32,000 bases of DNA from Pseudodesulfovibrio mercurii (GTDB lineage Bacteria; Desulfobacterota; Desulfovibrionia; Desulfovibrionales; Desulfovibrionaceae), in NCBI RefSeq assembly GCF_000189295.2, contig NC_016803.1:3390001-3422000 (forward strand), read 5' to 3'. A program made the translations under genes and the position numbers. This document shows, piece after piece, positions 9,157 through 32,000 of the stretch. The number at the start of each line of letters is the position of its first letter. Positions within the stretch are counted from its first letter, which is position 1. Under the pieces are notes generated by a model, which was given only the letters and a program-made list of their open reading frames with translations, made no database searches and was not told the origin of the DNA.

Positions 9157-10376
9157 TTGCCGGTCTCCAGTTCCTTCTTGAACTCGGCCCAGTCCGTGAA
9201 GGGGATGAACTTGCCGTCGTGCAGCTTGGTGAAGTGGATGGCGTCCAGCCCCTGGCGGTCGAAGGGACCGTAGGTGATGGTCAGCCCCGGCCCGAGGGTG
9301 AAGTCCTTGATGGATTCGATGGCCTTGATGAACCCCTCGCGGGTCAGGTCGCGGCCCGCCCGGCGTAATCCCTCCACCAGGATCTCGGCGTTGAGGAACC
9401 CTTCGAGGCCCACGAAGCTCGGGGTGTCGTCAGGGTAGTAGCGGTGCAGCAGCTTGACATAGTTGGAGGCCGAGTCGTTCAGGTCGTCGGACTCCACCGG
9501 CGGCGGGACCACCTGGGACATGAACACGTGGGCCGGGGAGGCCCTGCCCACCCGCCAGGCCAGCTCTTCGGCGCCGACGAAGGACACGGTGTAGAATATC
9601 GGGTTGTAGCCCTCTTCCTCGGACAGGTTGATGAACCGGGCGCAGGCCCCGTATGTGCCGATCATGACCACGGCCTCGGCTCCGGACTTGCGGATGCGGT
9701 CCAGGCCGTCCTGGACATCCAGGGTGCCGCGGATGTAGGAGCCGCGCGCCACGGGCTCCAACTCGAATTTCTTGAGGGCCAGCTCGGTGCCGATGAGGCC
9801 GTCGAAGCCGTAGGCGTCGTACTGGTAGAAGACCGCGATCTTGGTCAACCCCAGGTCCTCGACCATGTGCCGGACCGCGGCCATGGTCTCCTGGTAGTAG
9901 GAGGCGCGGATGTTGACCACGTAGCGGTTGGGCGGCTGCCGGAGCGCGTTGGCCCCGGTGAACATGCCGATGAGCGGGACGTGGGCGTCCTCCACCAGGG
10001 GCAGGGCCTTGACCGTGGTCGGGGTGCCCACATAGCAGAACAGGGCGAAGACCTTCTTGTCGATGATGAACCGCTGGGTGTTGGCCAGGCACTGGGGCGG
10101 GTCGTAGGAGTCGTCGTCGGCCTCGATGCGGATCTTGCGGCCGTGGACCCCGCCGCGCTCGTTGACGTAGCGGATGTACGCCCGGGCCCCCTGGAGGGTC
10201 TGGGTGCCGAGGTAGCCCGCGTGGCCGGACAGGGGCAGGGAGGACCCGAGGATGATTTCGGTGTCGGACACCCCCGGCGTACCGGCATCCTCGGCGGTGG
10301 CCTTTTCGGACCGGCCGCAGCCGGCGAGACCCAGGGCCAGGAAGAGGAGGATGCAGAGGAGAGGGGCGTTTCGCAA
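9153..10376 (-). CDS. periplasmic type-I solute-binding lipoprotein (Leu/Ile/Val-binding LivK-like family)
   Basis: The stop overlaps the kinase start (ATGA at 9153-9156). I prefer the TTG start at 10376, preceded by GGAG with a 7-nt spacer. It gives a lipoprotein signal (M)RNAPLLCILLFLALGLAGC. The longest ORF start is 10478. The body (ILGSSLPLSGHAGYLGTQTLQGARAYIRYVNERGGVHGRKIRIEADDDSYDP) is typical of the family. Confidence 0.85.
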   Translation of the reverse strand: MRNAPLLCILLFLALGLAGCGRSEKATAEDAGTPGVSDTEIILGSSLPLSGHAGYLGTQTLQGARAYIRYVNERGGVHGRKIRIEADDDSYDPPQCLANTQRFIIDKKVFALFCYVGTPTTVKALPLVEDAHVPLIGMFTGANALRQPPNRYVVNIRASYYQETMAAVRHMVEDLGLTKIAVFYQYDAYGFDGLIGTELALKKFELEPVARGSYIRGTLDVQDGLDRIRKSGAEAVVMIGTYGACARFINLSEEEGYNPIFYTVSFVGAEELAWRVGRASPAHVFMSQVVPPPVESDDLNDSASNYVKLLHRYYPDDTPSFVGLEGFLNAEILVEGLRRAGRDLTREGFIKAIESIKDFTLGPGLTITYGPFDRQGLDAIHFTKLHDGKFIPFTDWAEFKKELETGK

Positions 10377-10625
10377 GGTACGGCTCCATGTTGGGGTCGG
10401 CGGCAAGGCGTTGCCATAATCCGTTACCGTCTCGTCGGCCAAAACACAAGACAGGTCCATTTCCCCACAAAGCAACATCGCCGCCCGTCCCCTGCGTCCG
10501 GGAGAAAAAGACCCCGGCAGTACGCGCCTGCCGAGGTCATGGCAAACTCCGTCAGCCCCGGGGCCTTTCGGCTGCCGGACGGTGTGGCTTACGGAGGTGT
10601 TCCCGCATGAGGTGTTCAGAGGGAG

Positions 10626-10660
10626 AAACCCCGGCGCGGGGCGAGGCCCGCGCCGGGGTG
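10626..10660 (-). terminator. rho-independent terminator downstream of fdhB
   Basis: On the minus strand: CCCCGGCGCGGGCC-TCG-CCCCGCGCCGGGG followed by TTTCTCCC. A GC-rich stem of about 12 bp, 12 nt after the fdhB stop. Confidence 0.8.
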
Positions 10661-10671
10661 GAGTAGGAGCG

Positions 10672-11397
10672 TTATGAGGTCATGCGCTTGACCGGACGGC
10701 CCAGGCTGGCCAGGAACTGCTTCCTGGACATGGGGCCGCGACGGACGTCGGAGGCGTCCGCGGACAGGGACTCGTAGTAGCTGTCCGGATCGGTCTGCAC
10801 CAGGTAGATGACCCGCACCGAGTCGGCATCCACCAGTTCCGCATCGGGGTATTTCACCGAGGCGGCCGCCAGCCGTTTCTCGGCCAGTGCCAGCATCTCG
10901 TCCCGGTCGCCGAAGTTCATGGCACCGGTCGGGCAGGTCTGCACGCAGGCGGGCAGCAGCCCGACCTTGACGCGGTCGACGCACATGTCGCACTTGACCA
11001 CCTGGCCGGTTTCCTCGTTGACCCGGGGGATGTTGTAGGGACAGGCCATGGCGAAGGCTTCCTTGTCAGGTTCGTCGGCCGTCAGTTCGGTGTAGATCAC
11101 GGCGCCGGTCTCCTGGTCATGGATGATGGACCCGGGAATGGTCATGGCATCCAGGCAGGGCGGCTCCACGCAGTGGCGGCACTGTTCCGGGAAGAACAGC
11201 CACTGCATGCCGTTGTCGCCCTCCACTTCCTGGAAGCGGACGAGCTTGAGGGTCGTGCCGGACAGGTCCTTGGGGTTCTGATGGGAGCCCCAGTTTTCGG
11301 TCTTCTCGGCGGGCAGTTTCTTCCATTGCTTGCAGGCAACCTGGCAACCACGGCAGGCCGTACACTTGGTCAGGTCGATGAAGAATGTCTTGCTCAT
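10672..11397 (-). CDS. fdhB: formate dehydrogenase iron-sulfur (beta) subunit, 4x[4Fe-4S] ferredoxin type, no membrane anchor
   Basis: 241 aa. Cys clusters are CTACRGCQVAC, CRHCVEPPC, CPYNIP and CDMCVDRVKVGLLPACVQTCPTGA. AAGGAGG lies upstream of the ATG at 11397. Starts 12 nt after fdhA. Confidence 0.92.
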   Translation of the reverse strand: MSKTFFIDLTKCTACRGCQVACKQWKKLPAEKTENWGSHQNPKDLSGTTLKLVRFQEVEGDNGMQWLFFPEQCRHCVEPPCLDAMTIPGSIIHDQETGAVIYTELTADEPDKEAFAMACPYNIPRVNEETGQVVKCDMCVDRVKVGLLPACVQTCPTGAMNFGDRDEMLALAEKRLAAASVKYPDAELVDADSVRVIYLVQTDPDSYYESLSADASDVRRGPMSRKQFLASLGRPVKRMTS

Positions 11398-11409
11398 GTC
11401 ATTCCTCCT

Positions 11410-14400
11410 TTACGCCTTACGGACGTTGACCATGAAGGCCTTGGTTTCGGGGATGCCCGTGTTCGGGTCGCCTACGGACGGGGTCAGCAGGTTGGCGGAG
11501 TCGCCGCCATCCTTGGGCCAGGTCCAGCCGAAGTGCCAGGGCAGGCCCACCTGATGGACCACGGTGCCCTGGATGGTGAACGGCTTGAGCCGCTTGGTCA
11601 CGATGGCCTTGGCCCACAGGGAGCCGCGCAGGGAGTCCACGATGACCTTGGTGCCGTTCTCGATGCCGCGCAGTTCGGCCAGTTCCGGGCTCATTTCCAC
11701 GAAGATCTGCGGCTCGCATTCGGTCAGCCAGTCGCAGTTTCGGGTCATGAGGCCGGTCTGCCAGTGCTCGGTCACGCGGTAGGTGGTGCCGATCAGGGGA
11801 TACCTGGGATCGCACACGGCCTTTTCCTCGGCGTCGAACTTGAGCGCCGTGGGGTTGTGCAGGGTGCTCGAGAAGGGATGCGACTTCACCGGGCATTCCA
11901 GCGGTTCGTAGTATTCCGGGAACGGACCGTCGGCCCGGCCGGGGCCGAACAGCTGGCCGAAGCCGTGCTTGCGCATGATGAACGCGTACTTGGTTCCGGG
12001 GGCCCAGCCGCCGTCGGGCACGTCGCCCACCCACTTCTCGCCGTTCCAGGCGATGACCGCCTTCTGCGGGTTGTAGGGGTTGCCCTTGAGGTCAACCGAG
12101 GCGCGGTTGTAGAGCACGCGGCGGTTGACGGGCCAGCACCAGGAGAAGTTCGGGTACAGGCCGATGTTGGCCTGCTCCGCGGTCTGGTTGAGGTCGCGGC
12201 GGGCGGCCATGTTGCCCTTCTCCGTGTAGGAGTGGCAGTACAGCCAGTTGCCCGAACAGGTGGAGCCGTCGGCCTGCAGGAAGGCGAAGCTGGGAACCTG
12301 CTCGCCCTTCTTGTAGAGCTTGTCCTTGATCGTGGTGTCGCGGGTGAAGTGCCCGTTGATCAGCTTGGCCGTCTTGTGGGAGTCGAACACGCCGTCGGTG
12401 GCGATGGCGTCCCAGGTCAGCCGGGTGATGGGCTTGGAGTAGACGCCGCCTTCCTTCTCGTACAGGTGGCGGACTTCCTTCATCAGGTCATAGATGAGGT
12501 CGCCGTCCGGCTTCTGGCCGTTGGGGGCGTCCGGTCCCTTGTAGCGCCACTGCATCCAGCGGCCGGAGTTGGTGATGGAACCTTCCTTCTCGATGGAGAC
12601 GGCGCAGGGCAGGAAGAAGACCTCGGTCTTGATCTTGGACGGGTCCATTCCTGGTCCTTCCCAGAACCATCCGGTTTCGTTGGGGAAGATGTTAACGTTC
12701 ACCAGCCAGTCCAGCTTGGCCATGGCCTGTCTGTTCTTGTTGGCGTTGGCGCCGGAACAGGCGGGGTTCATGCCCCAGGCGAGCAATCCCTTGAACTTGC
12801 CCTTGTCCATTTTGTCGAACAGGGTCAGCCAGGAGTATTCCATGGCAGACAGGGAGTCGAGCCGCGGGAGATACTGGTAGGCGTCTTCCGGGGTGTCTTC
12901 CTGCCACATGGCCTTGATCAGCGAGGCGGAGTACTTCGGGAAGTTGCCCCACCAGTTGGCGGACTTGGGATCGTGGGAGACCGGCGTGTTGGCCTTGTTG
13001 TACGCGGCCAGGTCGGGCTGGGAACCCAGGGGGGTCGCCAGGTAGCCGGGCAGGATGTGGTACAGCAGGCAGTGGTCCGTGGACCCCTGGACGTTGGATT
13101 CGCCGCGCAGGGCGTTGACGCCGCCGCCGGCCACGCCGATGTTGCCGAGCAGCAGCTGGATCATGGCCATGGTACGGATGTTCTGCACGCCCACGGTGTG
13201 CTGGGTCCAGCCCATGGCGTACATGATGGTCCCGGCCTTGTCAGCCTTGCCGGTGGCCGCGTAGGTCTCGTACAGCTTGACCAGGTCTTCCTTCTTCATG
13301 CCCGAGATGTCGGCGACCTTGTCCAGATCATAGCGCTCGTAGTGCTTCTTGAGCAGCTGGTACACGCACTTGGGATCTTTCAGGGTCGGGTCCTTCTTCG
13401 GGTTGCCCTCGGCGTCCATGGCAAAGGCCCAGTTGGACTTGTCATAGGTCCGGGTGGACTCGTTGTAGCCGGAGAACAGGCCGTCGTTGAACGAGAACTT
13501 GTCGCCGACGATGAAGGAGGCGTTGGTGTAGTTGACCACGTAGTCGTGGAAGATCAGGTCCTTGTCCAGGATGTACTTGATCATGCCGCCGAGCACGGCG
13601 ATGTCCGCGCCGGAGCGGATGCCCGCGTAGAAGTCGGCCTTGGCCGAGGTCCTGGTGAAACGGGGATCGACGTGGATCAGGGTGGCGCCGTTTTCCTGCG
13701 CCTTGGTCACCCACTTGAAGGAAATGGGGTGGTTTTCGGCAGCGTTGCTGCCCATGATGAGAACACAATTGGAGTTCTGGATGTCAATCCAGTGGTTGGT
13801 CATCGCACCGCGTCCGAACGACTCTGCCAGAGCCGCAACAGTCGCGCTGTGTCAGATACGTGCCTGGTGCTCTATGTACACCAGGCCGAGGCTGCGGAGC
13901 ATGGTCTGGTAGGCCCAGCACTCCTCGTTGTCCAATGCGGCGGAGCCCAGGGAGGCGATGCCGTCGCAGCGGTTGACCACCTGGCCCTTGGCGTTCTTCT
14001 CGGTCCAGGTCGCGTCGCGGGTGTCCTTGATCCGGCGGGCGATGGTTTCCAGCGCCCAGGACAGGGAGACCTTCTTGAATTTGTTGGAGTAGGGAGCCCG
14101 GTACAGGACCGAGTCCGGACGGCGGTCGTTGTCGGCCAGCTGCCAGATGGAGGCGCCCTTGGCGCACAGGGCGCCTTCGTTGATCGGATGGTCGGGGTCG
14201 CCCTCGACGTTGATGGCCTTCATGTCCTTGAGGGACGTGTTGACGACCAGGCCGCAGCCCACGGCGCAGTAACAACATACGGTCGTGGTCTGCTTGCTCC
14301 ATTTCGGGTCCAGGGCCGATGCGTGGTCAGGCAGCGTCGCCGCCTTGGCCTTGCAGCCGAACCCGAGCCCGCCGAACGCCGTGGCCGTTGCCGCGACGGC

Positions 14401-14436
14401 GGAGAGCTTGAGGAAGTTTCTCCGGTTGGTGTGCAT
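11410..14436 (-). CDS. fdhA: periplasmic formate dehydrogenase catalytic (alpha) subunit, selenocysteine-containing, Tat-exported Mo/W-bis-PGD enzyme
   Basis: Track ORFs 13852..14436 and 11410..13803 are in one frame, separated only by TGA at 13852-13854. Translation reads ...LGLVYIEHQARI-U-HSATVAALAESFGRGAMTNHWIDIQNSNC, the canonical Sec active-site context. Twin-Arg signal MHTNRRNFLKLSAVAA. N-terminal FeS motif CCYCAVGC...C. 1008 codons. Confidence 0.95.
13819..13835 (-). other. candidate SECIS apical hairpin downstream of the fdhA UGA
   Basis: mRNA CGGCUCU-GGC-AGAGUCG forms a 7-bp stem (one G.U pair) starting 17 nt after the UGA. Flanking CGCG...CGCG could extend it into a stem-loop of about 45 nt. 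Position fits bacterial SECIS elements. Folding was done by eye only. Confidence 0.5.
13852..13854 (-). other. in-frame UGA selenocysteine codon of fdhA
   Basis: TCA on the plus strand is TGA on the minus strand, flanked by the conserved QARI / HSATV context of Sec formate dehydrogenases. Confidence 0.9.
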
Positions 14437-14974: not shown

Positions 14975-15904
14975 CTAGTCGGTGTCGGGCACCAGGGCGC
15001 AGAGGTAGGCGGCCAGGATCTCGGCCAGGGGCTTTTCGCGGTTGTTGAAGCGGAACTCCAGCTCCTTCATGTACAGGGGGAAGCGCTGGCAGGAGATGCC
15101 CCGGAACTTCTTGATGCGCGACTGGGCGTATCCCCAGAATTCGTCGTGCACCGCGTCGATGTGCGGGGGCTCGTCGTAGCGGCGGATGACCTCGTAGGGC
15201 AGGGAGTCGTTGCCGCAGAACATGAGCGCGTCGTACTCCTTGTAGCGGTCCGTGTAGACCAGGTTGCCCGAGCGGATGAGCTTCAGGTGGAAGTTCATGT
15301 GGAAGTGGAACAGGGTCTCGGCCTGGAAGCCGGGCACCAGGTCGATGAAGACCAGGTCGTCGCGGCGCAGGATGCCGTAGACCGGGATGGTGTCCATGCG
15401 CATCTCGCGCGGCCCGCCGGTCAGCCGGTTGCCCTTGAGGTAGGAGTCCAGCCCCGTGGCCGGGCTGATCAGCTGCCGGGCGTCCAGGGCGTTGGCCAGG
15501 ATGGCGAAGCGGATGGCGGTCAGGGCCTTGTAGACCGTGTTGTAGGACAGCCCGAGTTCCTCCTTCATCTGGTGAACCGAGCGCTCCTCCACGAACAGGA
15601 CGATGAGCCGCAGCCATTCGGCCGGGTTCAGAGCCCCGTTGTTGATCCACCGGCCCGAGAAGGGCTGGAAGGTGTACTTGCAGGCCGCGCAGCGCAGCCG
15701 TTCTCCGGACAGGGAGTAGACCTTGCGGTGGCCGCAGCGCGGGCAGAAGGGGTCGCCCGTGGGCCAGGCCAGCTCCAGCAGGTAGTCCCTGGCCTTGTCC
15801 TCGTCGTGCAGCAGGGCCTCGAAGGCCGCGCCGTGGTCCGGCGAAACGATGGCCGGCATGATGTGCGAACTGTTCGGCATGACGTCCCGTGGTGCTTCGG
15901 GCAT
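14975..15904 (-). CDS. IS1595/ISXO2-like transposase-family protein (Zn-ribbon + DDE-type domain), apparently without IS termini
   Basis: 309 aa. Zn-ribbon CPRCGHRKVYSLSGERLRCAACKYTF. Followed by the family-typical W..LI / HTH segment, then the candidates MRMDT, VYTDRYKEYDAL and HDEFWGYAQSRIKKFRG...YMKELEFRFNNRE. GGGAGG lies 5 nt upstream of the ATG at 15904. Starts only 15 nt after the fdhE stop. Confidence 0.85.
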   Translation of the reverse strand: MPEAPRDVMPNSSHIMPAIVSPDHGAAFEALLHDEDKARDYLLELAWPTGDPFCPRCGHRKVYSLSGERLRCAACKYTFQPFSGRWINNGALNPAEWLRLIVLFVEERSVHQMKEELGLSYNTVYKALTAIRFAILANALDARQLISPATGLDSYLKGNRLTGGPREMRMDTIPVYGILRRDDLVFIDLVPGFQAETLFHFHMNFHLKLIRSGNLVYTDRYKEYDALMFCGNDSLPYEVIRRYDEPPHIDAVHDEFWGYAQSRIKKFRGISCQRFPLYMKELEFRFNNREKPLAEILAAYLCALVPDTD

Positions 15905-15919: not shown

Positions 15920-16807
15920 TTAGAACCCCCAGGCGGACAGGGTCGCCCGTCGGTATCCCTGGTTCGCGGCCACATAGTCCAGGGCCAGGGAATCCAGGTC
16001 GTCCAGGACCGGGAGCGCCACGCGGTCCAGGTTCCGGAAGTCGATGGTCTTGACGTAGCTCTTGCAGGACTCGCAGACGTCCACCCGGAAGCCGGGCTCC
16101 TCGTCCACGGTGAAGAAGGTCAGCTTCTTCTGGTCGTCCTCGCCGCAGACCGGGCAGCTGATGCGCTTGATCCGGTAGTGGTGGCGGCAGAATGAACAGG
16201 TGGCGTGCCGGAACCCCTCCTTCTGTTCCAGGGAGGAGATGAGCGGCATGGACCCGCAGATGGGGCAGGTGCCCACGGGCTGGACCTTCACCTCGGGCAG
16301 CTTTTCGGCGAGCAGCCCGGCCGCGGCCTCCATGGACGGGCCCATGGCCGCCATGACCAGGAAGGGCAGGGTCCGGGGGGCGTCCTGCATGCGCTCGGCC
16401 CAGCGGCCGAAAAAGGCGGTGTCGTCGTCCAGGAAGCGGCGGAACAGCTCGTCCGGGGTCAGGTCCCCGGCCTCAAGGGCCTCGGCCACGATCCCGGCGC
16501 CTTCGCCCAGGGGACCGCCCGCCTTGCGGACCAGGGCGACGAGCTTGCCGAGCAGGCTCTCGGCCTGGGCCCGGTCAAAGGGAAAATCCTCGCGGTTGAT
16601 CAGCGAGACGCCCTGGAGCACGGCCTCGGGCGGGGTCAGGGCCTCGTCCGGCGGCAGGACCACCCGGGCTTCGGGCAGGGCGGCCAGTTGCAGGTGCGTG
16701 ACCTCGTCGAGCAGATCGATGAGTTCGGCGGATATGTAGGACTTCTTTCTCAGCTGGGCGAGCTTGCGGTCGAGCCTGCTCGTTTCAAGGGTCATGTCGC
16801 GTTCCAT
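15920..16807 (-). CDS. fdhE: formate dehydrogenase accessory protein FdhE
   Basis: Cys-pair motifs CPICGS, CSFCRH, CPVCGE and CESCKSY are typical of FdhE. I prefer the ATG at 16807 (GGAG with a 6-nt spacer) over the TTG at 16819 used by the ORF track. Confidence 0.92.
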   Translation of the reverse strand: MERDMTLETSRLDRKLAQLRKKSYISAELIDLLDEVTHLQLAALPEARVVLPPDEALTPPEAVLQGVSLINREDFPFDRAQAESLLGKLVALVRKAGGPLGEGAGIVAEALEAGDLTPDELFRRFLDDDTAFFGRWAERMQDAPRTLPFLVMAAMGPSMEAAAGLLAEKLPEVKVQPVGTCPICGSMPLISSLEQKEGFRHATCSFCRHHYRIKRISCPVCGEDDQKKLTFFTVDEEPGFRVDVCESCKSYVKTIDFRNLDRVALPVLDDLDSLALDYVAANQGYRRATLSAWGF

Positions 16808-16869
16808 GTTGTTCTCCAAAGTGTTTTCCTATCGTGAAAAACAGTAGGAGTGCGTGACGCATCTTGCCA

Positions 16870-17004: not shown

Positions 17005-17041
17005 GTCGAAAAAATCATGACCCAAAGCGGGAAGGGGGTCA
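17005..17041 (-). terminator. possible terminator overlapping the fdhD stop
   Basis: On the minus strand: TGACCC-(12 nt)-GGGTCA followed by TGATTTTTTC. The stem is short and the loop large, but the T-tract is good. Confidence 0.4.
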
Positions 17042-17824
17042 GAAGCCGATAATCCGGCCGGTGTCGTTGTAGACCCAGAAGCTGTCCGCGCGGATGTTGC
17101 CGATGAGGGTGATGCCGGTCTTCCTGGCCAGTTCCACCGAGAAGCTGGTGGCCACGGCCGTGGAGGCCAGGACCGGGACGCCGATGCGGACCACCTTGAG
17201 CAGGATTTCCGAGGCCACCCGGCCGGTGGTCACGATGAGCTTGTCGTCCACGGCCACGTCGTCCAGGAAGCACTGGCCGCAGATCATGTCGATGGCGTTG
17301 TGCCGTCCGATGTCCTCGCGGAACAGGAGCATCTCGTCCGGGGTGCACAGGGAGGAGTTGTGGCAGCCGCGCGTGGTCTTGTACAGGACCGAGCGCTCGT
17401 GCAGCTCCCCGGCCAGGGCCAGGATCTGATCCGGGGTGACGCGCACGTCGCCGCCGACCTTGCGCTTGGAGATGGTCGCCACGTTGCGCCCGAAGTTGGT
17501 GCCCTTGCCGCAGCCCGAGGTGATGGACCGCTCCATGACCCGGTCCTTCCACGGGTCGTGGCAGACCTCCACCTCGGCCACCAGCCGGTCGCCCTCGTCG
17601 CGCACGGTCAGGTCCGTGAGCTGGGCCGGGCTGGAGATGAAGGCGTCGGACTTGAGAAAGCCCACGGCCAGGTACTCCGGGTACTTGGCCGTGCACAGCA
17701 GGGTGACCACCTCGCGCCCGTTGAGCACGATGGTCAGCGGCACCTCCCGGATGGCGCTGATTCTCTTGCGGGTGAACCCCCGCCGGTATTCGTGGACGTC
17801 GTATTCGTGTGTTTCCGCGCTCAT
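17039..17824 (-). CDS. fdhD: formate dehydrogenase accessory sulfurtransferase FdhD
   Basis: ATG at 17824 (MSAETHEY...) with GGAGG 6 nt upstream. Motifs VEVCHDPW, SGCGKG (active-site Cys loop) and GRHNAIDM are typical of FdhD. 261 aa. Confidence 0.92.
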   Translation of the reverse strand: MSAETHEYDVHEYRRGFTRKRISAIREVPLTIVLNGREVVTLLCTAKYPEYLAVGFLKSDAFISSPAQLTDLTVRDEGDRLVAEVEVCHDPWKDRVMERSITSGCGKGTNFGRNVATISKRKVGGDVRVTPDQILALAGELHERSVLYKTTRGCHNSSLCTPDEMLLFREDIGRHNAIDMICGQCFLDDVAVDDKLIVTTGRVASEILLKVVRIGVPVLASTAVATSFSVELARKTGITLIGNIRADSFWVYNDTGRIIGF

Positions 17825-18089
17825 GGCCGCCTCCGCTCCCTTCCGCCCCCTTCCTATAACCGGGGGGCGGGTTCGGGCAAGCGGACCCATTTTACCCTGA
17901 CTCTCACACTGGGGCGGGCGGCGCTGACCTTAACAATTCTTGATGGACCGGCCGGTATCCCGGTGACCGGACGCCGCGATAAGGATTATGAACGGTCCGC
18001 TCCCGCCCGCCTTCCGCCCACGGGAAGGGGAGACTGTCGTCGGCAGTTGCCGGGGGGCTGGAAGAGAGCGGATTAACCAGGAGATGTCT

Positions 18090-25344: not shown

Positions 25345-26022
25345 TTACTGGGTGGCGTAGGTCACGTCGGCCAGGTACACGGTCCGGCCGTCATCGAGGG
25401 TCAGGACGACGCCGTCGTCGGAATTGCTCACGCCGGTCACGGTGCCGGTGGTCGAGGTCGAGCAGCTCACCTCGTCGCCGTCTTCGTCGGTGGCCGTGGC
25501 CAGGACGTAGTAGTTGCCGTCATCGGCCTCGTCGCCGTTGTAGTCGGTGCCGTCCCAGGCGAAGGACACGGTTCCCGCTTCAAGCCCGGTGAAGGTCTGG
25601 GTGTCCACGATGGACCCGCTGGTGTCGTAGATGTTCACGACCAGCTCGGCCGCGTCGTCGTCCAGGGTCAGGTACAGGGAGGAGACGTCGTCCCCGTCCT
25701 TGTTGATGGTGTAGCCGTCGGCCTCCACCTCCTTGCCCAGGTAGTCGAGTCCGGAGGAGATTCCCTGAGCGTCGAGGGCGTCGGTCAGGGTGTCCATCTT
25801 CTCGTTCATCTCGGTGAGCTGTTCGAGCTGGGAATACTGGGTCATCTGATCGACCATCTGGGTGTTGTCCACGGGCTCGGTGGGGTCCTGGTACTCGAGC
25901 TCGGTGCACAGCAGGGTGATGAAGTCGTCCGAGGTCAGCGACGTGGCGCTCTCGGTGGTCGTGGTCGTGTCGGTGTACGACGCGAGCAGGGACTCGTAGT
26001 AGCTGGTGGTGTCGATGCTCAT
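25345..26022 (-). CDS. flgD: flagellar hook assembly (capping) protein FlgD
   Basis: ATG at 26022 with AAAGGAGGAAGG upstream. Motif DDFITLLCTELEYQDPTEPVDNTQMVDQMTQYSQLEQL is typical of FlgD. 225 aa. The start overlaps the upstream sigma gene's stop (ATGA at 26019-26022). Confidence 0.9.
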   Translation of the reverse strand: MSIDTTSYYESLLASYTDTTTTTESATSLTSDDFITLLCTELEYQDPTEPVDNTQMVDQMTQYSQLEQLTEMNEKMDTLTDALDAQGISSGLDYLGKEVEADGYTINKDGDDVSSLYLTLDDDAAELVVNIYDTSGSIVDTQTFTGLEAGTVSFAWDGTDYNGDEADDGNYYVLATATDEDGDEVSCSTSTTGTVTGVSNSDDGVVLTLDDGRTVYLADVTYATQ

Positions 26023-26603
26023 GAGACCTTCCTCCTTTCGGACGGCTCCGGCTCGTCGGTTTCGGCCAGGGGGGCGGAGGCGCCGTAGTGGATGCGCAGC
26101 CGGTCGAGGGCCTGGAACTTGATGCTGCGGACCGTGCGCGAGGTGATGCCGAGCTTCTGAGCGATCTCGCAGGCGATCAGTCCGTCCCGGTAGTAGAGGG
26201 TGACGACCTCGGCCTGGCGGTCGGTCAGCACGCCCGCGGGCAGGCTGAACAGGTTGGCGTCGAGGCCGCCCTCGGAGCTGCTCTGGGGGGCGTCGGTGAG
26301 CACGGACTCCATCCAGCGCAGCTTCTTTCTGTAGTAGTCGATGGCGGTGGTGCGGCAGATGATGTTGAGCCAGGTGATGAAGGAGCACTTCTCGTCGTTG
26401 TAGCGGGAGATATAGTCGTTCTTGAAAATCTTCAGGGCGATTTCCTGGTATATATCATCTATCTCCGCACTCTGGAGGTTGATACTCCTGGACTTCACAA
26501 AGTTTATGATGAGCTTATATATGAGTCTGGAATGTTCACTGAACAGACGGTCATATGATATCTCGTCATATCGTTTCTGGATTTCCATTACTGTGCTGCT
26601 CAT
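26019..26603 (-). CDS. short sigma-70-family RNA polymerase sigma factor, ECF-like (regions 2 and 4 only)
   Basis: ATG at 26603 follows GGAGGTTAAAA. Region-2-like DDIYQEIALKIFKN...FITWLNIICRTTAIDYYRKK. Region-4 HTH LTDRQAEVVTLYYRDGLIACEIAQKLGITSRTVRSIKFQALDRL. 194 aa with only about 30 aa of linker. The upstream ATGs of track ORF 26019..26654 lie 5' of the predicted promoter. Confidence 0.85.
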   Translation of the reverse strand: MSSTVMEIQKRYDEISYDRLFSEHSRLIYKLIINFVKSRSINLQSAEIDDIYQEIALKIFKNDYISRYNDEKCSFITWLNIICRTTAIDYYRKKLRWMESVLTDAPQSSSEGGLDANLFSLPAGVLTDRQAEVVTLYYRDGLIACEIAQKLGITSRTVRSIKFQALDRLRIHYGASAPLAETDEPEPSERRKVS

Positions 26604-26930: not shown

Positions 26931-27791
26931 CTAGCCGCCGATGAGCGACAGGGCCATCTGCGGGAGCGAATTGGCCTGCGAGAGCATCGCCACGGCAGAT
27001 TGGGTAATGATCTGCTCCTTGGTGTACTCGGTCATCTCGGTGGCGACATCCACATCGGAGATGCGGGACTCCGAGGCCTGAAGGTTCTCGGCCTGGATTT
27101 CGAGGTTGGAGATGGTGGCCGTCAGACGGTTCTGCATGGCGCCGAGGTTGGCCCGGACATTGTCCTTGGACTCGATGGCGTCGTTCAGGGCGTCCAGGGC
27201 GGCCTGGGCGGCCGCCTGGGTGGAGACCACCGCGCCCGCCTTGTCCACGCCCGCCGCCAGGCCCACGCCCAGGGCGGAGGCCGTGCAGTTGGCGATGGTC
27301 ACGTCGTACTTGTCCTCCGCGGCGTCGTTGCCCGTGCCGAAGTGGATGGTCACGCCGTCGGCGGAGAGGTTGCCGTTGAGCAGGTAGATACCGTTGAAGT
27401 CCGTGGCGTTGGCGATACGGGTGATCTCCGAGGCCATGGCCTGGTATTCGGAGTCGATGATCAGCCGCTGGGCGTCCGTGTAGGTACCGGTGGCGGCCTG
27501 CTCGGCCAGTTCCTTCATGCGGATGAGCTTTTCATCGATGACGGACAGCGCGCCGTCGGCGGTCTCGATCATGGAGATGCCGTCGTTGGCGTTGCGGATG
27601 CCCTGGTTGAGGGTGGAGATGTCCGAGCGCATGAGCTCGCGGACGGCCAGGCCGGCGGCGTCGTCGGCCGAGGAGTTGACGCGAAGGCCCGAGGACAGGC
27701 GTTCCGTGGACGTGCTCAGCGCGCTGTAGGCGCCGTTCAGGTTACGGGCGGCGGCACTTGCCATAAGGTTGTTGTTAACTACGAGAGCCAT
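26931..27791 (-). CDS. fliC: flagellin
   Basis: ATG at 27791 (MALVVNNNLMASAAARNLNGAYSALSTSTERLSSGLRVNSSADDAAGLAV) with AAGGAGG upstream. C-terminus AENLQASESRISDVDVATEMTEYTKEQIITQSAVAMLSQANSLPQMALSLIGG. 286 aa. Confidence 0.93.
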   Translation of the reverse strand: MALVVNNNLMASAAARNLNGAYSALSTSTERLSSGLRVNSSADDAAGLAVRELMRSDISTLNQGIRNANDGISMIETADGALSVIDEKLIRMKELAEQAATGTYTDAQRLIIDSEYQAMASEITRIANATDFNGIYLLNGNLSADGVTIHFGTGNDAAEDKYDVTIANCTASALGVGLAAGVDKAGAVVSTQAAAQAALDALNDAIESKDNVRANLGAMQNRLTATISNLEIQAENLQASESRISDVDVATEMTEYTKEQIITQSAVAMLSQANSLPQMALSLIGG

Positions 27792-27963
27792 GATTCCTCC
27801 TTGAATGGTTATGCTTCCATGCATTTTCTCCGTCACGATGATCGGAGAACCAAAATTGCCCATGTATACGAAACGGACAGGGGCAAACGTTCATGGAGGA
27901 AAAATATGCCGGGCAAAGATTCGGCGGCCGGCGGCGGTTTGCTGAATGTAAAACTGAGGTTTC

Positions 27964-27982
27964 TTAATGTTCTTAACATTAA
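27964..27982. promoter_or_regulatory. perfect 8-bp inverted repeat TTAATGTT-CTT-AACATTAA in the divergent flagellin / regulator intergenic region
   Basis: Read directly. It sits in an AT-rich stretch. A second inverted repeat, ATCATAA-(14 nt)-TTATGAT, lies at 27999-28026 just upstream of the regulator gene's SD. Confidence 0.4.
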
Positions 27983-28047
27983 TTGATTCGGATTTTATAT
28001 CATAATTTCTTCTGAATCTTTATGATGCATTCAAAAGGAGTGTGTTG

Positions 28048-28758
28048 ATGAAAGACCTGTTGCTGATCGACGACGACCCTGAACTGGCCGAAATGCTCCA
28101 GGCCTATCTCGGCGGCGAGGGGCTCGGCCTCGATGCGGCCGTATCCGGGAGCGCCGGTCTGGAAATGGCCCGGAAAGGGGATTACGAGCTGGTCATCCTG
28201 GACGTCATGCTCCCGGATACCAGCGGGTTCAACGTGCTGACCAAGCTGCGCGCCGTGTCCGGCGTGCCGGTCATCATGCTCACCGGGCGCGGGGAGGAGA
28301 TCGACCGGGTGGTCGGCCTGGAGATGGGCGCGGACGACTACGTGTCCAAGCCGTTCCAGCTGCGTGAGCTGCTGGCCCGCATCCGCGCGGTGCTGCGCCG
28401 CTACGGCAGCGGGGCCGAGGAGGCCGGTGACATGGCCGCGGTCAAGGCCAAGCCGGGCATCGAGATCGGCGAGGTCCACCTGAACCGCAACGCCCGGAAC
28501 ATGACCATCGGCGGCCTGCCCGTGCACCTGACCTCCACCGAGTTCGACATCCTGGAGATGCTCGCCCTGAACATGGGCAACGTGGTGGACCGCGTGAGCC
28601 TCATGGAGAAGGCGCTGGGCCGTAACGAGGATTTCGACGACTACGTGCTCAACGTGCACATGAGCAACCTGCGCAAGAAGCTGGACCGCAACGTCAGCAT
28701 CAAGACCATCCGGGGGCGGGGCTATCTCCTGGCCGTCCCCCAGGAAGAGGCCGTGTAG
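28048..28758 (+). CDS. OmpR/PhoB-family response regulator (REC + winged-helix DNA-binding domain)
   Basis: ATG at 28048 with AAAGGAG 7 nt upstream. REC motifs LLIDDD, LVILDVMLPDTSG and YVSKPF. Winged helix: LTSTEFDILEMLALNMGNVVDR...IKTIRGRGYLL. Confidence 0.92.
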   Translation: MKDLLLIDDDPELAEMLQAYLGGEGLGLDAAVSGSAGLEMARKGDYELVILDVMLPDTSGFNVLTKLRAVSGVPVIMLTGRGEEIDRVVGLEMGADDYVSKPFQLRELLARIRAVLRRYGSGAEEAGDMAAVKAKPGIEIGEVHLNRNARNMTIGGLPVHLTSTEFDILEMLALNMGNVVDRVSLMEKALGRNEDFDDYVLNVHMSNLRKKLDRNVSIKTIRGRGYLLAVPQEEAV

Positions 28759-30672
28759 ATGGGGCTCGACCGGTGGCGGCCGGTTTCCCTGTGCATCGTC
28801 TTCCTGCTGCTTTGGTCCACGGCCTGCCTGGCCGATGACGACCTGTCCGAGCTGGGGCTCGAGGAGCTCATGCAGGTGGAGGTGGCCAGCGCCACCCGCC
28901 GGACCGAGCCCCTGTCGCGCATCCCGGCGGCGGTCACGGTCCTGACCGAGGAGGACATCTTCCGGTCGGGCGCGACCAACGTGCCCGAGGCGTTGCAGCT
29001 CGTGCCCGGCGTGCACGTGGCCCAGACCAACACCGACCGTTGGGCCGTCGGCATCCGGGGCTTCAACGGCATCCTGAGCAACAAGCACCTGGTCCTGGTG
29101 GACGGCAGGCCGGTGACCTCGCCGGTCATGACCGGGGTGCAGTGGGACAACATCGTGCCCATCAGCATGATCAAGCGCATCGAGGTGGTGCGCGGCACCC
29201 GCACCAGCCTGTGGGGCGCGGAGTCCTTCACCGGGGTCATCAACATCATCACCAAGAACGCCTTCGAACTGCAGGGCGGACAGTCCGTGACCACGGGCGG
29301 CACCCGGGGCGTGGGCGAGACCGTGCGCCAGGGGGTGAAGACCGGCGACAATTCGGCCCTGGCGGTCTACGGCACGGGCCAGTACCTCAACGGCAACTGG
29401 CTGACCAGCCGCCACGGGGACCGCGACGGCAACGAGTGGAACAAGGTCCAGGGCGGCCTGCGCGCGGACTGGGAGAACGCCTTCACCGACGCCCTGTCCG
29501 TGCAGTGCGACCTGGTCCGCTCCAACACCGAGGAGGACGGTCCCGGCGGTCCCGGTCCGGGAGGCGTCCCGGAGACCCGCTCGCGCAGCGACGTCAACGG
29601 CTACGCCCAGTTCGTTTGGGACCGGGCCACGGGCCTGGACTCCAACCTGCGCTTCCGGACCTCCTACACCCGCGACACGGCCATGCTCGCCGACCTGGAC
29701 GGCGGGGTGAACGTCCTGGACGCCGAGCTGACCTCGGCCATGGAGCAGATGGGCCGCCACTACCTGACCTGGGGCCTGGGCACCCAGTATTTCTGGGACG
29801 ACGTGCACGACGGGAGCAACACGAACATCGACCGGGAGCACATCTACACCTGGACCGGCAGCGGCTTCCTGCGCGACCGCATCACCCTGCTGCCGGAGTC
29901 CCTCTATTTCATCGCCGGGCTGAAGGCCGACGCCCTGGGCGAGGGGACCACTGAGCTCCAGCCTACGGTCCGCCTGCTGCACACCCGGGACGACGCCGAG
30001 TACTGGCTGGCCGTGTCGCGCGGGGTGCGCGCGGACACCCGCTACCAGCGCAGCGGGACCTACGTGATCAACGTCGGGGGCACGGACTACCAGGTCGAGG
30101 CGCCGGGCAACCTCAAGACCGAAAAACTCGTCTCCTACGAGGCGGGCTACCGTCAGGCCCTGACCCAGGACGCCCGGTTCGACCTCTCCCTGTACGTCAA
30201 CGACTACTCCGAACTGCTCATGCTCGAGCTGGACAAGACCACCCACACGGCCAAGGTGACCAACTCCCTCAAGGGCACGGCCTACGGCCTGGAGGCCATG
30301 TTCGAGTGGACCGCCGCCGACTGGCTGACCCTCAAGCCCTCGGTCAGCCTCATCTACCAGAACCTCTACGGCCTGGAGTCCGGGCCGGTGGGCGACTCCA
30401 TGCCCGAAGAGGGGTTCGGCGGCGAGGTCAAGCTGCAGATCCTGACCAAGCCGCTCAAGGACGTGGGCTTCGACCTCTTTCTCGGCTACATCGACAGCCC
30501 GGACCAGCTCCACCTGCCCGCCTACTTCAACGTGGACGCCCACGCCTCCTGGCGGGTCTCGGACGCGCTCCTGCTCGAACTCATCGGCCGCAACCTCGGC
30601 GGCTCCCACGAACAGTTCTCGGAAATGGCCGTGGGCCCGAGCCTGGATTGCCGGATAACCTGGGACTTCTGA
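28759..30672 (+). CDS. TonB-dependent outer-membrane receptor
   Basis: The ATG directly abuts the regulator's stop (TAG ATG). It has a signal peptide. Plug motifs are VTVLTEEDIFRSGATNVPEALQLVPGV, IRGFN and IEVVRGTRTSLWGAESFTGVINIITK. Beta-barrel-like alternating C-terminal part ends in ...ITWDF (terminal aromatic). Confidence 0.9.
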   Translation: MGLDRWRPVSLCIVFLLLWSTACLADDDLSELGLEELMQVEVASATRRTEPLSRIPAAVTVLTEEDIFRSGATNVPEALQLVPGVHVAQTNTDRWAVGIRGFNGILSNKHLVLVDGRPVTSPVMTGVQWDNIVPISMIKRIEVVRGTRTSLWGAESFTGVINIITKNAFELQGGQSVTTGGTRGVGETVRQGVKTGDNSALAVYGTGQYLNGNWLTSRHGDRDGNEWNKVQGGLRADWENAFTDALSVQCDLVRSNTEEDGPGGPGPGGVPETRSRSDVNGYAQFVWDRATGLDSNLRFRTSYTRDTAMLADLDGGVNVLDAELTSAMEQMGRHYLTWGLGTQYFWDDVHDGSNTNIDREHIYTWTGSGFLRDRITLLPESLYFIAGLKADALGEGTTELQPTVRLLHTRDDAEYWLAVSRGVRADTRYQRSGTYVINVGGTDYQVEAPGNLKTEKLVSYEAGYRQALTQDARFDLSLYVNDYSELLMLELDKTTHTAKVTNSLKGTAYGLEAMFEWTAADWLTLKPSVSLIYQNLYGLESGPVGDSMPEEGFGGEVKLQILTKPLKDVGFDLFLGYIDSPDQLHLPAYFNVDAHASWRVSDALLLELIGRNLGGSHEQFSEMAVGPSLDCRITWDF

Positions 30673-31208
30673 TGGGTGCGCTGCGGCCGATACTCGTCGC
30701 CGCCCTGGCCTGGGCGCTGCTCCTGCCGTCGCTCCCGGCCCTGGGCGGGACGCGCCTGACCGCCACCCCGGACCAGCTGCGCGCCCTGTACGTGCAGCGG
30801 CTGGTCAAGTATGCGGCCTGGCCGGAGGGCGCGGGCCCGGCGCCGGGCCGTCCCTTCGTGGTCGCGGCCACGGACCCGGCCCGGCTGCGCCCCTACTTCC
30901 CGGCGCCGGACAACGGCGACCCCGCCTTCGAGCTGGTCCAGTGGCCCGCCGAGTGCGACGTGCTCGTCCTGGTCGGCGCGTCCCGGCGGGAGGTCGCGGC
31001 CATCCTCAAGCGCGTGGCGGACAGGCCCGTGCTGACCATCACCCAGGACCCGGACGGCCCGGCCCTGGGCGCGATCATCAATTTCGTCATGCAGGGCGGC
31101 CGCCTCAAGCTCGAGGTCAGCCCCGAGGCGGCCCGCCGGGCCGGGCTGACCATCAGCTCCCGGCTGCTGCAACTGGCCCGCATCTACCGGGAGGCGCCCC
31201 GTGACTAA
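30672..31208 (+). CDS. YfiR-family periplasmic protein (DUF4154)
   Basis: The ATG overlaps the receptor stop (TGATG). Signal peptide MGALRPILVAALAWALLLPSLPALG. Motifs YVQRLVKYAAWPEG and VLTITQDPDGPALGAIINFVMQGGRLKLEVSPEAARRAGLTISSRLLQLA are typical of DUF4154/YfiR. Confidence 0.85.
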   Translation: MGALRPILVAALAWALLLPSLPALGGTRLTATPDQLRALYVQRLVKYAAWPEGAGPAPGRPFVVAATDPARLRPYFPAPDNGDPAFELVQWPAECDVLVLVGASRREVAAILKRVADRPVLTITQDPDGPALGAIINFVMQGGRLKLEVSPEAARRAGLTISSRLLQLARIYREAPRD

Positions 31209-31227
31209 GCCCGCGCGCCCCCCCAAG

Positions 31228-32000
31228 ATGACCCCCCTGGGCCGGAAGATCGCGGCGGCCATCCTCGGCACCACCCTGGTGGCCCTGGCCCTGAGCTTTC
31301 TCCTCAACGCCATCCCCATGGTCAACGCCTACCGTCAGGAGGGCGTGGACAAGGCCCGCTCCCTGGCCGAGCTCATGGCCCGCTCCCTGGCCGCGCCCGT
31401 GGACTTCGACGATCCCGAGGCCGCGGCCGAGAACCTGCGCACCCTGTCCCTCAATCCCAACGTGCTCGGAGCGGCCGTGTACCTCGGCAACGCCGCGCCC
31501 TTCGCCGTGTACGGCACGCCGCCGGACTTCGCCTCCCTGGCCGGGCCGGGGGTGACCACCTCCCTGTCCGCCCTGACCGTGGCGGCCGGGATTCCCTGCG
31601 GCAGCACCGGCTGCCTGGTGGTCCTGAACGTCTCCCTGGCCGGGCAGTGGGGGCTGCTCAAGTCCTACCTGGTCAGCGGCGGGCTCATCCTGCTCGGGGT
31701 GTTCGTCTTCTGCTTCAAGCTGGCGGGCACGTTCCGGCGCAGGCTCGGCGACCCCCTGCGCGAGCTGACCGAGGCCATCGGCGACATCTCCGGCAGCCGG
31801 GACTACTCCCGCCGCGTGGACTACCGCAGCGACGACGAGCTGGGCGTGCTCGTGGCCGAGTTCAACGCCATGCTCGAGCGCATCGAGGACCGCGACGACC
31901 GCTTGAACCGGCACCGCGAGATGCTCGAACAGCGGGTCGAGGAACGGACCCTGCAACTCAAGGTCAAGCAGCTCGAACTGCTCAAGAACAACCGCCAGCT
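31228..32000 (+). CDS. membrane sensor protein, N-terminal CHASE8-like periplasmic domain + HAMP + coiled coil; 3' end outside the window (kinase or cyclase output unknown)
   Basis: The frame is open from GTG 31201 / ATG 31228 to the window end, which is why it is absent from the ORF track (no stop). TM1 is IAAAILGTTLVALALSFLL. A ~120 aa domain follows (ARSLAELMARSLAAPVDFDDPEAAAENLRTLSLNPNVLGAAVY). TM2, then HAMP (LGDPLRELTEAIGDISGSRDYSRRV...DELGVLVAEFNAML). The GTG at 31201 overlaps the YfiR-like stop. Confidence 0.8.
   Translation, partial: MTPLGRKIAAAILGTTLVALALSFLLNAIPMVNAYRQEGVDKARSLAELMARSLAAPVDFDDPEAAAENLRTLSLNPNVLGAAVYLGNAAPFAVYGTPPDFASLAGPGVTTSLSALTVAAGIPCGSTGCLVVLNVSLAGQWGLLKSYLVSGGLILLGVFVFCFKLAGTFRRRLGDPLRELTEAIGDISGSRDYSRRVDYRSDDELGVLVAEFNAMLERIEDRDDRLNRHREMLEQRVEERTLQLKVKQLELLKNNRQ

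Follow-up and report, generated by a model that had tools for sequence, protein, structure and literature searches.

A four-gene cassette of Pseudodesulfovibrio mercurii, located in the 32,000-nucleotide (nt) stretch of the genome analyzed here (NC_016803.1, positions 3,390,001–3,422,000; hereafter the window), encodes a TonB-dependent receptor (T), a YfiR-like DUF4154 protein (Y), and a CHASE8-HAMP sensor (S), preceded by an OmpR-type response regulator. Comparative data strongly support the view that T, Y, and S act as one functional unit, a reading to which we assign a probability of about 70%, and the three proteins most likely constitute a relay from the cell surface to the cytoplasm. The cassette is best described as a YfiBNR-like tripartite envelope signaling system with a TonB-dependent receptor and a two-component output.

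Gene Organization of the Cassette

The cassette and the elements upstream of it are as follows.

26931–27791, minus strand: flagellin gene (NCBIfam flagellin, 2.5e-73), divergent from the cassette; context, outside the conserved trio.
27960–27980, no strand assigned: direct-repeat element TTTCTTAATGTTCTTAACATT (TTCTTAA, two copies), conserved in a seven-genome intergenic alignment.
28012–28027, plus strand: promoter-proximal block CTGAATCTTTATGATG with a possible −10 hexamer, TATGAT, conserved in the same alignment.
28048–28758, plus strand: OmpR/PhoB-family response regulator, 236 amino acids (aa) (Pfam).
28759–30672, plus strand: TonB-dependent receptor, 637 aa (Pfam, NCBIfam, AlphaFold2 [AF2], Foldseek, PDB sequence search).
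30672–31208, plus strand: YfiR-fold DUF4154 protein, predicted periplasmic, 178 aa (Pfam, NCBIfam, AF2, Foldseek).
31201–32000, plus strand: sensor histidine kinase, N-terminal 266 aa visible (Pfam, NCBIfam); the window ends inside the gene.

All four cassette genes are on the plus strand, and their stops and starts abut or overlap when the junctions are read directly from the sequence. The TAG stop codon of the regulator (28756–28758) is followed immediately by the ATG of the receptor (28759–28761), the receptor stop and the Y start share 1 nt in TGATG (30670–30674), and the GTG start of the sensor gene (31201–31203) lies 8 nt inside the Y gene, which terminates with TAA at 31206–31208. The regulator ATG at 28048 is preceded by AAGGAG. 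The best explanation for this arrangement is that the four genes form one operon for a signaling pathway that spans the cell envelope. An earlier reading of this DNA, made before any database was searched (the original prediction), had described the four same-strand genes, their junctions, and the divergent flagellin gene exactly as found here, and each of its four domain assignments, including DUF4154 and CHASE8, passed the Pfam profile searches.

Receptor, Y, and Kinase Genes Are Linked across Bacterial Phyla

More than 560 relatives were listed for the receptor and more than 570 for Y. From an alignment of diverse receptors, one genome was retained per species to give 80 loci (three of them cut by contig ends), and genes were assigned in these loci with profiles built from the window's proteins. 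A Y gene was present in 65 of the 80 receptor-homolog loci. The strict order T, Y, S was found in 47, and six variant loci, which had tandem T-T-Y-S, one inserted acetyltransferase gene, or the order Y-T-S, bring the full trio to 53/80. Lineages with the trio include Acidobacteriota, Planctomycetota, Verrucomicrobiota, Nitrospinota, Nitrospirota, Gemmatimonadota, Armatimonadota, Spirochaetota, Desulfobacterota, and Alpha-, Beta-, and Gammaproteobacteria. The genes for the receptor, DUF4154 protein, and CHASE8-HAMP sensor in the window are likewise on the same strand and directly adjacent.

The linkage was also assessed reciprocally from Y on metagenome contigs. In this sample, which comprised the 80 loci closest to a Gemmatimonadota Y and is biased to the receptor-linked subfamily and skewed to soil Gemmatimonadota- and Acidobacteriota-like Y proteins, T was directly upstream in 64 of 66 informative loci (97%) and S was directly downstream in 72 of 74. 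The full trio was adjacent and on the same strand in 57/80 reciprocal loci, and most of the others were cut by contig ends. Adjacency of the trio is far beyond chance. The original prediction had stated that an unconserved gene neighborhood would count against it; the trio proved to be conserved across many phyla.

All-versus-all clustering of the open reading frames (ORFs) in the 80 receptor-homolog loci gave only three real recurrent families: T (79), S (63), and Y (63). We read the other recurrent clusters as shadow ORFs on the antisense strand. None of the following recurred in this clustering: genes for TonB/ExbBD, an inner-membrane transporter, an OmpA/YfiB-like protein, flagellin, or a sigma factor. 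The genes of the trio are also tightly packed, with a median spacing of 0–1 nt between Y and S and frequent 4-nt overlaps. An overlap of exactly 13 nt between the T and Y genes, present in 39/56 metagenome loci and 13/56 genome loci from different phyla, is unusually conserved; the overlap in the window is 1 nt.

Where several receptors occur at one locus, each is paired with its own Y. Locus L012 (117–13317) has one Y-S pair and two further T-Y pairs, and L011 (1941–10389) has T-T-Y plus T-Y, which suggests that several input modules serve one kinase. The pairs can also occur separately: Y-S pairs without an adjacent receptor were found at L002, L153, and L164, and T-Y pairs without a CHASE8 kinase directly downstream at L032, L039, and L041. 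At L032 (Zoogloea ramigera, 7980–13330), T and a DUF4154 gene are followed by genes for an Hpt-containing protein and a REC-PAS-GGDEF-EAL protein, and this variant may feed into cyclic di-guanosine monophosphate (c-di-GMP). The idea that receptors without a Y form a separate paralog clade was ruled out because they occur at scattered positions in the tree, and in several cases the receptor is simply the leading T of a T-T-Y arrangement.

Y Is Predicted to Have the YfiR Fold

Y matches the DUF4154 "YfiR/HmsC-like" family (PF13689; 4e-25, 89 bits versus a cutoff of 24.9) and has a signal peptide with no lipobox. The AF2 model, made with 33 homologs in the alignment, has a predicted local distance difference test score (pLDDT) of 85. 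When this model was compared with the PDB using Foldseek, the top 15 matches were all Pseudomonas aeruginosa YfiR, either free or bound to YfiB, with template modeling (TM) scores of 0.55–0.70; the next matches were small substrate-binding proteins and an L-tryptophan (L-Trp)-binding ATP-binding cassette (ABC) domain. At the level of the predicted structure, the YfiR fold of Y is confirmed, in line with the family originally proposed. Sequence similarity to YfiR is weak (E about 6e-4) and confined to the C-terminal half. A search of the 50% representative library at E ≤ 1e-3 gave 27,584 DUF4154 clusters, making this a large family.

The hallmarks of the Y family are W-P, PVLT, and a C-terminal helix, L-x-ISSRLL-x-LA. 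These map to the region of YfiR that forms the conserved surface for YfiB, proposed to serve for YfiN as well. YfiR binds YfiB by edge-strand pairing, and the same conserved surface is thought to bind the periplasmic domain of YfiN (PMC4655355); vitamin B6 or L-Trp can also be bound by YfiR at the partner-binding site (PMC4887326). Y has a single cysteine, C95, at the position of YfiR C110; 37 of 42 Y proteins from trio loci share it, and an equivalent of YfiR C71 is present in only 16 of the 42. In YfiR, the cysteine pairs C71-C110 and C145-C152 are involved in redox and folding control.

The best-scoring relatives of Y in the representative library (P0177–P0181, P0187, and P0192) are proteins of 340–378 aa with two tandem DUF4154 domains. 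YfiR is a dimer in crystals, and these double-domain proteins fit a dimeric working unit.

The Sensor Is Predicted to Be a Histidine Kinase

The visible part of the sensor consists, in order, of a first transmembrane segment, a CHASE8 domain (nt 31339–31521; 4.2e-10, 40 bits versus a cutoff of 27), a second transmembrane segment, a HAMP domain (nt 31732–31890; 8.9e-11), and the start of a coiled coil. At complete orthologous loci the sensor is a CHASE8-HAMP-HisKA-HATPase_c histidine kinase of 499–514 aa, and the HisKA and HATPase_c domains of the window protein probably lie beyond position 32000. This assignment draws on orthologs with 56–72% local identity to the sensor (P0001–P0003) and on loci with receptors of 42–84% identity. 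Because the orthologous sensors end in HisKA/HATPase_c, the cassette is predicted to have a two-component output and not a c-di-GMP output; the original prediction had allowed for both and had named the lack of any output domain as counter-evidence, and only the former is retained. Consistent with this, the best score against the NCBIfam DgcN/YfiN model was 61 bits versus a cutoff of 325.

The same type of output prevails elsewhere. Of the 46 sensors whose genes adjoin those of T and Y, CHASE8 and HATPase_c occur together in 45. Hybrid kinases, with receiver domains, account for 24 of the 46, Hpt is also present in 15, and only three have additional GGDEF/EAL domains.

The Receptor Has No FecA-type Signaling Extension

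The receptor has a signal peptide (residues 1–25), a Plug domain (residues 52–160, 1e-22), a TonB_dep_Rec_b-barrel match (2.1e-10), and a C-terminal Phe at the end of the beta-barrel. A Ton-box-like segment, QVEVASA, is located at residues 39–45 (nt 28873–28893). With a plug inside the barrel, a Ton-box segment, and a C-terminal aromatic residue, the protein has the features of a TonB-dependent receptor. In the AF2 model (pLDDT 82, predicted TM score 0.84), residues 20–51 are disordered and are followed by a normal plug and barrel; the closest structures found with Foldseek were Cir, BtuB, and ChuA/ShuA (TM scores 0.76–0.82).

The original prediction that this receptor has no FecA-type N-terminal extension is borne out by three observations. 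There was no Pfam match to an STN domain, the N-terminal disordered stretch of the AF2 model is short, and a PDB sequence search aligned the plug from about precursor residue 42, as in BtuB and Cir. The equivalent point in FecA and FpvA is at chain residues 109–152, corresponding to roughly 50–110 extra N-terminal residues, whereas about 26 residues separate signal peptide and plug in the window receptor.

The regulator has a receiver domain (Response_reg, 1.8e-26) and a winged helix (Trans_reg_C, 2e-20). Its best NCBIfam matches, CpxR, MtrA, and others, were all below cutoff; because no equivalog cutoff was reached, the protein is not CpxR, OmpR, PhoB, or another named regulator.

The Trio Is Catalogued but Functionally Unstudied

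NCBIfam contains a linked set of three models: NF053590 (TOL_0244 family TonB-dependent receptor), NF053591 (TOL_0243 family YfiR-like periplasmic protein), and NF053592 (sensor histidine kinase, YfiR-like protein-associated). The existence of these linked models means that the trio is already recognized by the NCBIfam curators. T, Y, and S from the window each have the corresponding trio model as their best NCBIfam match, all with scores below cutoff. The receptor scored 379.8 bits against NF053590 (cutoff 645), and its Maridesulfovibrio ortholog scored 353. Receptors of Gemmatimonadota, Sulfuricella, and Verrucomicrobia (L050, L006, and L033) pass with 676–814 bits, and several from Gammaproteobacteria are just under the cutoff at 579–633 bits. 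Y scored 82.2 bits against NF053591 (cutoff 125), with only the C-terminal half (residues 92–171) matching. The sensor scored 121.3 bits against NF053592 (cutoff 194) over model positions 2–222 of 223; therefore, the end of the window is not the cause of the low score. Since all three proteins score well below the cutoffs, the window cassette is a divergent Desulfovibrionaceae branch that the curated models miss.

The NCBIfam families are named after locus tags, and public records give these proteins generic names only. A full-text literature search, with most subscription journals outside its coverage, found no paper on the trio or its function. In the literature searched, the trio is catalogued yet functionally unstudied, so the original claim of an uncharacterized signaling route holds for function, whereas the gene set itself was already represented in NCBIfam. 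P. aeruginosa PA3268–PA3271, considered as a possible example of the trio, was dropped because the papers found discuss PA3271 alongside CrbS-type sensors.

Comparison with Known Signaling Systems

The window has the same three families as the NCBIfam trio in the same order, but the Desulfovibrionaceae version differs in its non-hybrid kinase, the OmpR-type regulator gene at the head of the operon, the divergent flagellin gene, and the sub-cutoff scores.

In the YfiBNR/TpbB system of P. aeruginosa, and in AwsXRO and HmsCDE, an outer-membrane lipoprotein sequesters periplasmic YfiR and thereby frees the CHASE8-HAMP diguanylate cyclase YfiN. YfiBNR and the cassette both combine a YfiR-fold periplasmic protein, a CHASE8-HAMP sensor, and an outer-membrane protein, and both extend over three compartments (PMC4655355; PMC4887326). 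They differ in the outer-membrane partner, which is a TonB-dependent receptor in the cassette and an OmpA-like peptidoglycan-binding lipoprotein in YfiBNR, and in the output, which is a histidine kinase with an OmpR regulator for the cassette and GGDEF for YfiN. In addition, Y does not have the two cysteine pairs of YfiR, and the gene order is T-Y-S as opposed to yfiR-yfiN-yfiB. The scanned ORFs of the window and the genes called at orthologous loci included no OmpA-like family, nor did any such family recur in the 80 receptor-homolog loci.

A TonB-dependent receptor as the input to transcriptional signaling is established for FecA-FecR-FecI and proposed here for the cassette, but the cassette has no STN domain or FecR-type anti-sigma factor, and its output is a two-component system and not an extracytoplasmic function (ECF) sigma factor. 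In the PfeA-PfeS/PfeR and PirA-PirS/PirR systems of P. aeruginosa, a TonB-dependent receptor is combined with a two-component system that senses the imported siderophore. As in the cassette, the receptor gene adjoins genes for a histidine kinase and an OmpR-family regulator, and these systems are the model for the import alternative considered below. We know of no YfiR-like third component or CHASE8 domain in them, nor of any cross-phylum conservation of their adjacency in a fixed order. LuxP-LuxQ, TorT-TorS, and ChvE-VirA offer precedents for the control of a histidine kinase by a soluble periplasmic protein bound to its sensor domain. In these cases the partner is a full two-lobe binding protein, compared with the YfiR-fold half domain of the cassette, and there is no dedicated outer-membrane receptor gene.

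A Proposed Relay and Its Alternatives

Y most likely binds the periplasmic domain of the kinase, by analogy with YfiR and YfiN, because it shares the fold of YfiR and because S is the same CHASE8-HAMP type of sensor as YfiN. Binding of Y to the CHASE8 domain would set the balance between kinase and phosphatase activities of S, as YfiR does with the CHASE8-HAMP cyclase YfiN, and T would provide the outer-membrane input that governs the amount of free Y. In the preferred version, a ligand-loaded, TonB-engaged receptor would expose its N-terminal Ton-box region and periplasmic face and capture Y, taking the role of YfiB; capture would then relieve, or impose, the control of Y over S. S would phosphorylate the OmpR-type regulator, and the regulator would act at the TTCTTAA direct repeat to autoregulate the operon and possibly to tune flagellin expression. 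We infer every protein-protein contact, the direction of control, and the regulon in this scheme.

Direct capture of Y by T is put forward tentatively, with somewhat less than an even chance of being correct. It is favored because each T has strictly one Y and the translational overlap is conserved, because the receptor is the only conserved outer-membrane partner, and because YfiR binds YfiB by edge-strand pairing, the mode in which TonB captures Ton boxes. The placing of the receptor in the outer-membrane role of YfiB in the original prediction fits these data, as no YfiB-like OmpA lipoprotein recurs at the loci.

Several observations weigh against a relay of this kind. The receptor, with its intact plug, Ton-box-like segment, and Cir/BtuB/ChuA-like fold, resembles an ordinary compact transporter, which would fit ligand import at least as well as protein capture. 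Y lacks both cysteine pairs of YfiR, so the details known for YfiR may not transfer. No T-Y or Y-S fusion protein was present among the 150 best Y relatives in the representative library, and about 12 of the 80 receptor homologs, scattered through the tree, have no nearby Y. Finally, the sensor gene is cut by the end of the window, and its output is deduced from orthologs.

The leading alternative, which fits the data as well as capture does, is a ligand-import relay. Here T would import a small molecule for binding by Y or by the CHASE8 domain, and the complex of Y with its ligand would switch the kinase without any contact between T and Y, much as in PfeA with PfeS/PfeR or in LuxP-LuxQ and TorT-TorS. 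We rate this only slightly less likely than direct capture. The closest structures to T are the true transporters Cir, BtuB, and ChuA, and T has an intact plug and a Ton-box-like segment. Y has half of a substrate-binding-protein fold, its matches after YfiR are substrate-binding proteins and an L-Trp-binding ABC domain, and the partner site of YfiR itself accommodates vitamin B6 or L-Trp (PMC4887326). The provision of one Y per T at L011 and L012 would suit ligand-specific pairs, and, with no conserved inner-membrane transporter nearby, the cargo would stop in the periplasm, as a signal would. The 13-nt T/Y overlap and the strict adjacency are, however, tighter than co-expression alone requires, and conservation within Y is highest at the C-terminal helix and surface responsible for protein contacts in YfiR.

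Alternatively, the genes might be co-regulated but functionally separate: Y and S would form their own envelope-stress or redox sensor of the YfiR-YfiN type, and T would be a nutrient transporter that is a target or a passenger, with no signaling input. Two-component systems that merely regulate an adjacent TonB-dependent receptor gene are common. Y-S pairs without an adjacent receptor (L002, L153, and L164) and receptor homologs without a Y would be expected under this arrangement, which we judge unlikely, and less so the T-Y adjacency seen across many phyla (97% in the reciprocal sample) with its conserved overlaps. Moreover, each T has its own Y even where there is a single S, and T-Y pairs occur with no CHASE8 kinase directly downstream (L032, L039, and L041). 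Among the partner kinases are many hybrids that have no gene for a DNA-binding regulator close by, and therefore T is not simply a regulated target. The depth and tightness with which the genes are linked are difficult to reconcile with a role for T as a mere co-expressed transporter.

Classical FecA-type signaling through the nearby ECF-type sigma gene (26019–26603, minus strand), with the two-component genes unrelated, was rejected as very improbable: the sigma gene is two genes away and is conserved at Desulfovibrionaceae loci, but T has no N-terminal STN domain, no FecR-like anti-sigma gene was seen, and the sigma gene is on the opposite strand inside the flagellar flgD-flgE operon and is not recurrent at trio loci of other phyla.

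The Flagellin Link and OmpR-type Regulator Are Features of the Desulfovibrionaceae Lineage

The nearest named relatives of the receptor are from Pseudodesulfovibrio species (74–84% identity). The same arrangement was found in P. karagichevae (L004), P. indicus (L084), P. cashew (L085), Desulfovibrio aminophilus (L086), a Maridesulfovibrio genome (L087), and two fragmentary contigs (L001 and L003). This version of the cassette has a non-hybrid kinase, and its operon begins with an OmpR-family regulator gene, which abuts or overlaps the receptor gene in every Desulfovibrionaceae genome examined. To the left, a divergent block of flgK, flgE, flgD, the ECF-type sigma gene, and flagellin is present in all six loci for which the left flank is available (L001, L004, and L084–L087), spanning at least three Desulfovibrionaceae genera with receptor identities as low as 42%. 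The right flank is different in each Desulfovibrionaceae genome. Neither the flagellin link nor the OmpR regulator is general to the trio, and both are specific to this lineage; the connection to motility raised by the original prediction stands only in that the divergence is kept across the Desulfovibrionaceae, and it is absent from the trio at large.

In the intergenic alignment of seven genomes, two blocks stand out on the cassette side. The direct repeat TTTCTTAATGTTCTTAACATT occurs once in the window, where no further copies were found, and 100 shuffles gave 0 matches. Within the promoter region shared with flagellin, it is a candidate site for binding of the OmpR-type regulator. The second block, CTGAATCTTTATGATG, sits just upstream of the ribosome-binding site of the regulator gene. 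When the intergenic region was scanned for consensus promoters and terminators, there were no matches and no full sigma-70 promoter, an absence that would suit an activator-dependent promoter. We infer that this promoter is autoregulated and activator dependent, and that it possibly also affects flagellin.

On the flagellin side, the leader and promoter region (27792–27900, minus strand) has three blocks common to the seven genomes: GTGCATCCATGCAT, ATGTATACGGA, and CGTTCATG. The first could form a GGA-loop hairpin beside the ribosome-binding site, resembling a CsrA/FliW-type control site, and the other two may be promoter elements.

The ECF-type sigma gene at 26019–26603 (minus strand; TIGR02937, 67 bits versus a cutoff of 43) is not FliA. 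It sits between flgD and flagellin at all Desulfovibrionaceae loci (L084, 4260–4838; L085, 4268–4849; L086, 4313–4852; L087, 2961–3506), overlaps flgD by 4 nt in L084–L087, and has no evident anti-sigma gene beside it. It is unusual for a flagellar operon to include an ECF sigma factor gene. Downstream of the cassette in P. karagichevae (L004, 12044–15677) and P. indicus (L084, 11156–14657) are genes for a dCache-HAMP adenylate/guanylate cyclase and an SBP_bac_1 protein, a flank that is not conserved in other genera.

Other Features of the Window

A formate dehydrogenase alpha subunit gene (11410–14436, minus strand) is split into two ORFs by an in-frame TGA at 13852–13854, which lies in the motif HQARI-U-HSATV and is a selenocysteine codon. 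The N terminus of the protein has a twin-arginine translocation (TAT) signal and an Fe4S4 domain. Genes for an FdhB-like protein (10672–11397), FdhE (15920–16819), and FdhD (17039–17890) are nearby, and an IS1595-family transposase gene (14975–15904, minus strand; DDE_Tnp_IS1595 plus zinc ribbon) lies between fdhA and fdhE/fdhD. At 7147–10478 (minus strand), an sCache_3_2-HAMP-PAS histidine kinase gene is directly downstream of, and overlaps, a Peripla_BP_6 periplasmic binding-protein gene. This second sensor pair, unrelated to the cassette, is a classic combination of a binding protein and a kinase.

Implications for Surface Signaling

To our knowledge, TonB-dependent receptors signal only through an N-terminal domain with an anti-sigma factor and an ECF sigma factor, or indirectly via an imported substrate, and we know of YfiR only as the middle piece of the YfiBNR c-di-GMP switch. 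The cassette is a good candidate for an undescribed route of surface-to-cytoplasm signaling. Possibly, though short of probably, the trio represents a third class of TonB-dependent surface signaling besides the FecA-type and import-then-sense classes, in which a receptor with no signaling domain signals that it is ligand-occupied or TonB-engaged by capturing a YfiR-fold shuttle that otherwise restrains a CHASE8 kinase. Such a class would occur in a dozen or more bacterial lineages and, in the Desulfovibrionaceae, would be wired to an OmpR-type regulator that shares the flagellin promoter region, linking a surface cue to motility. If correct, a receptor-YfiR-kinase relay would join the fields of TonB-receptor signaling and YfiR, make the YfiR-CHASE8 pair a general periplasmic partner-switch module that feeds phosphorelays, and give a function to a cassette that occurs in many environmental phyla. 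In sulfate reducers, the relay may connect a surface cue to flagellar gene expression.

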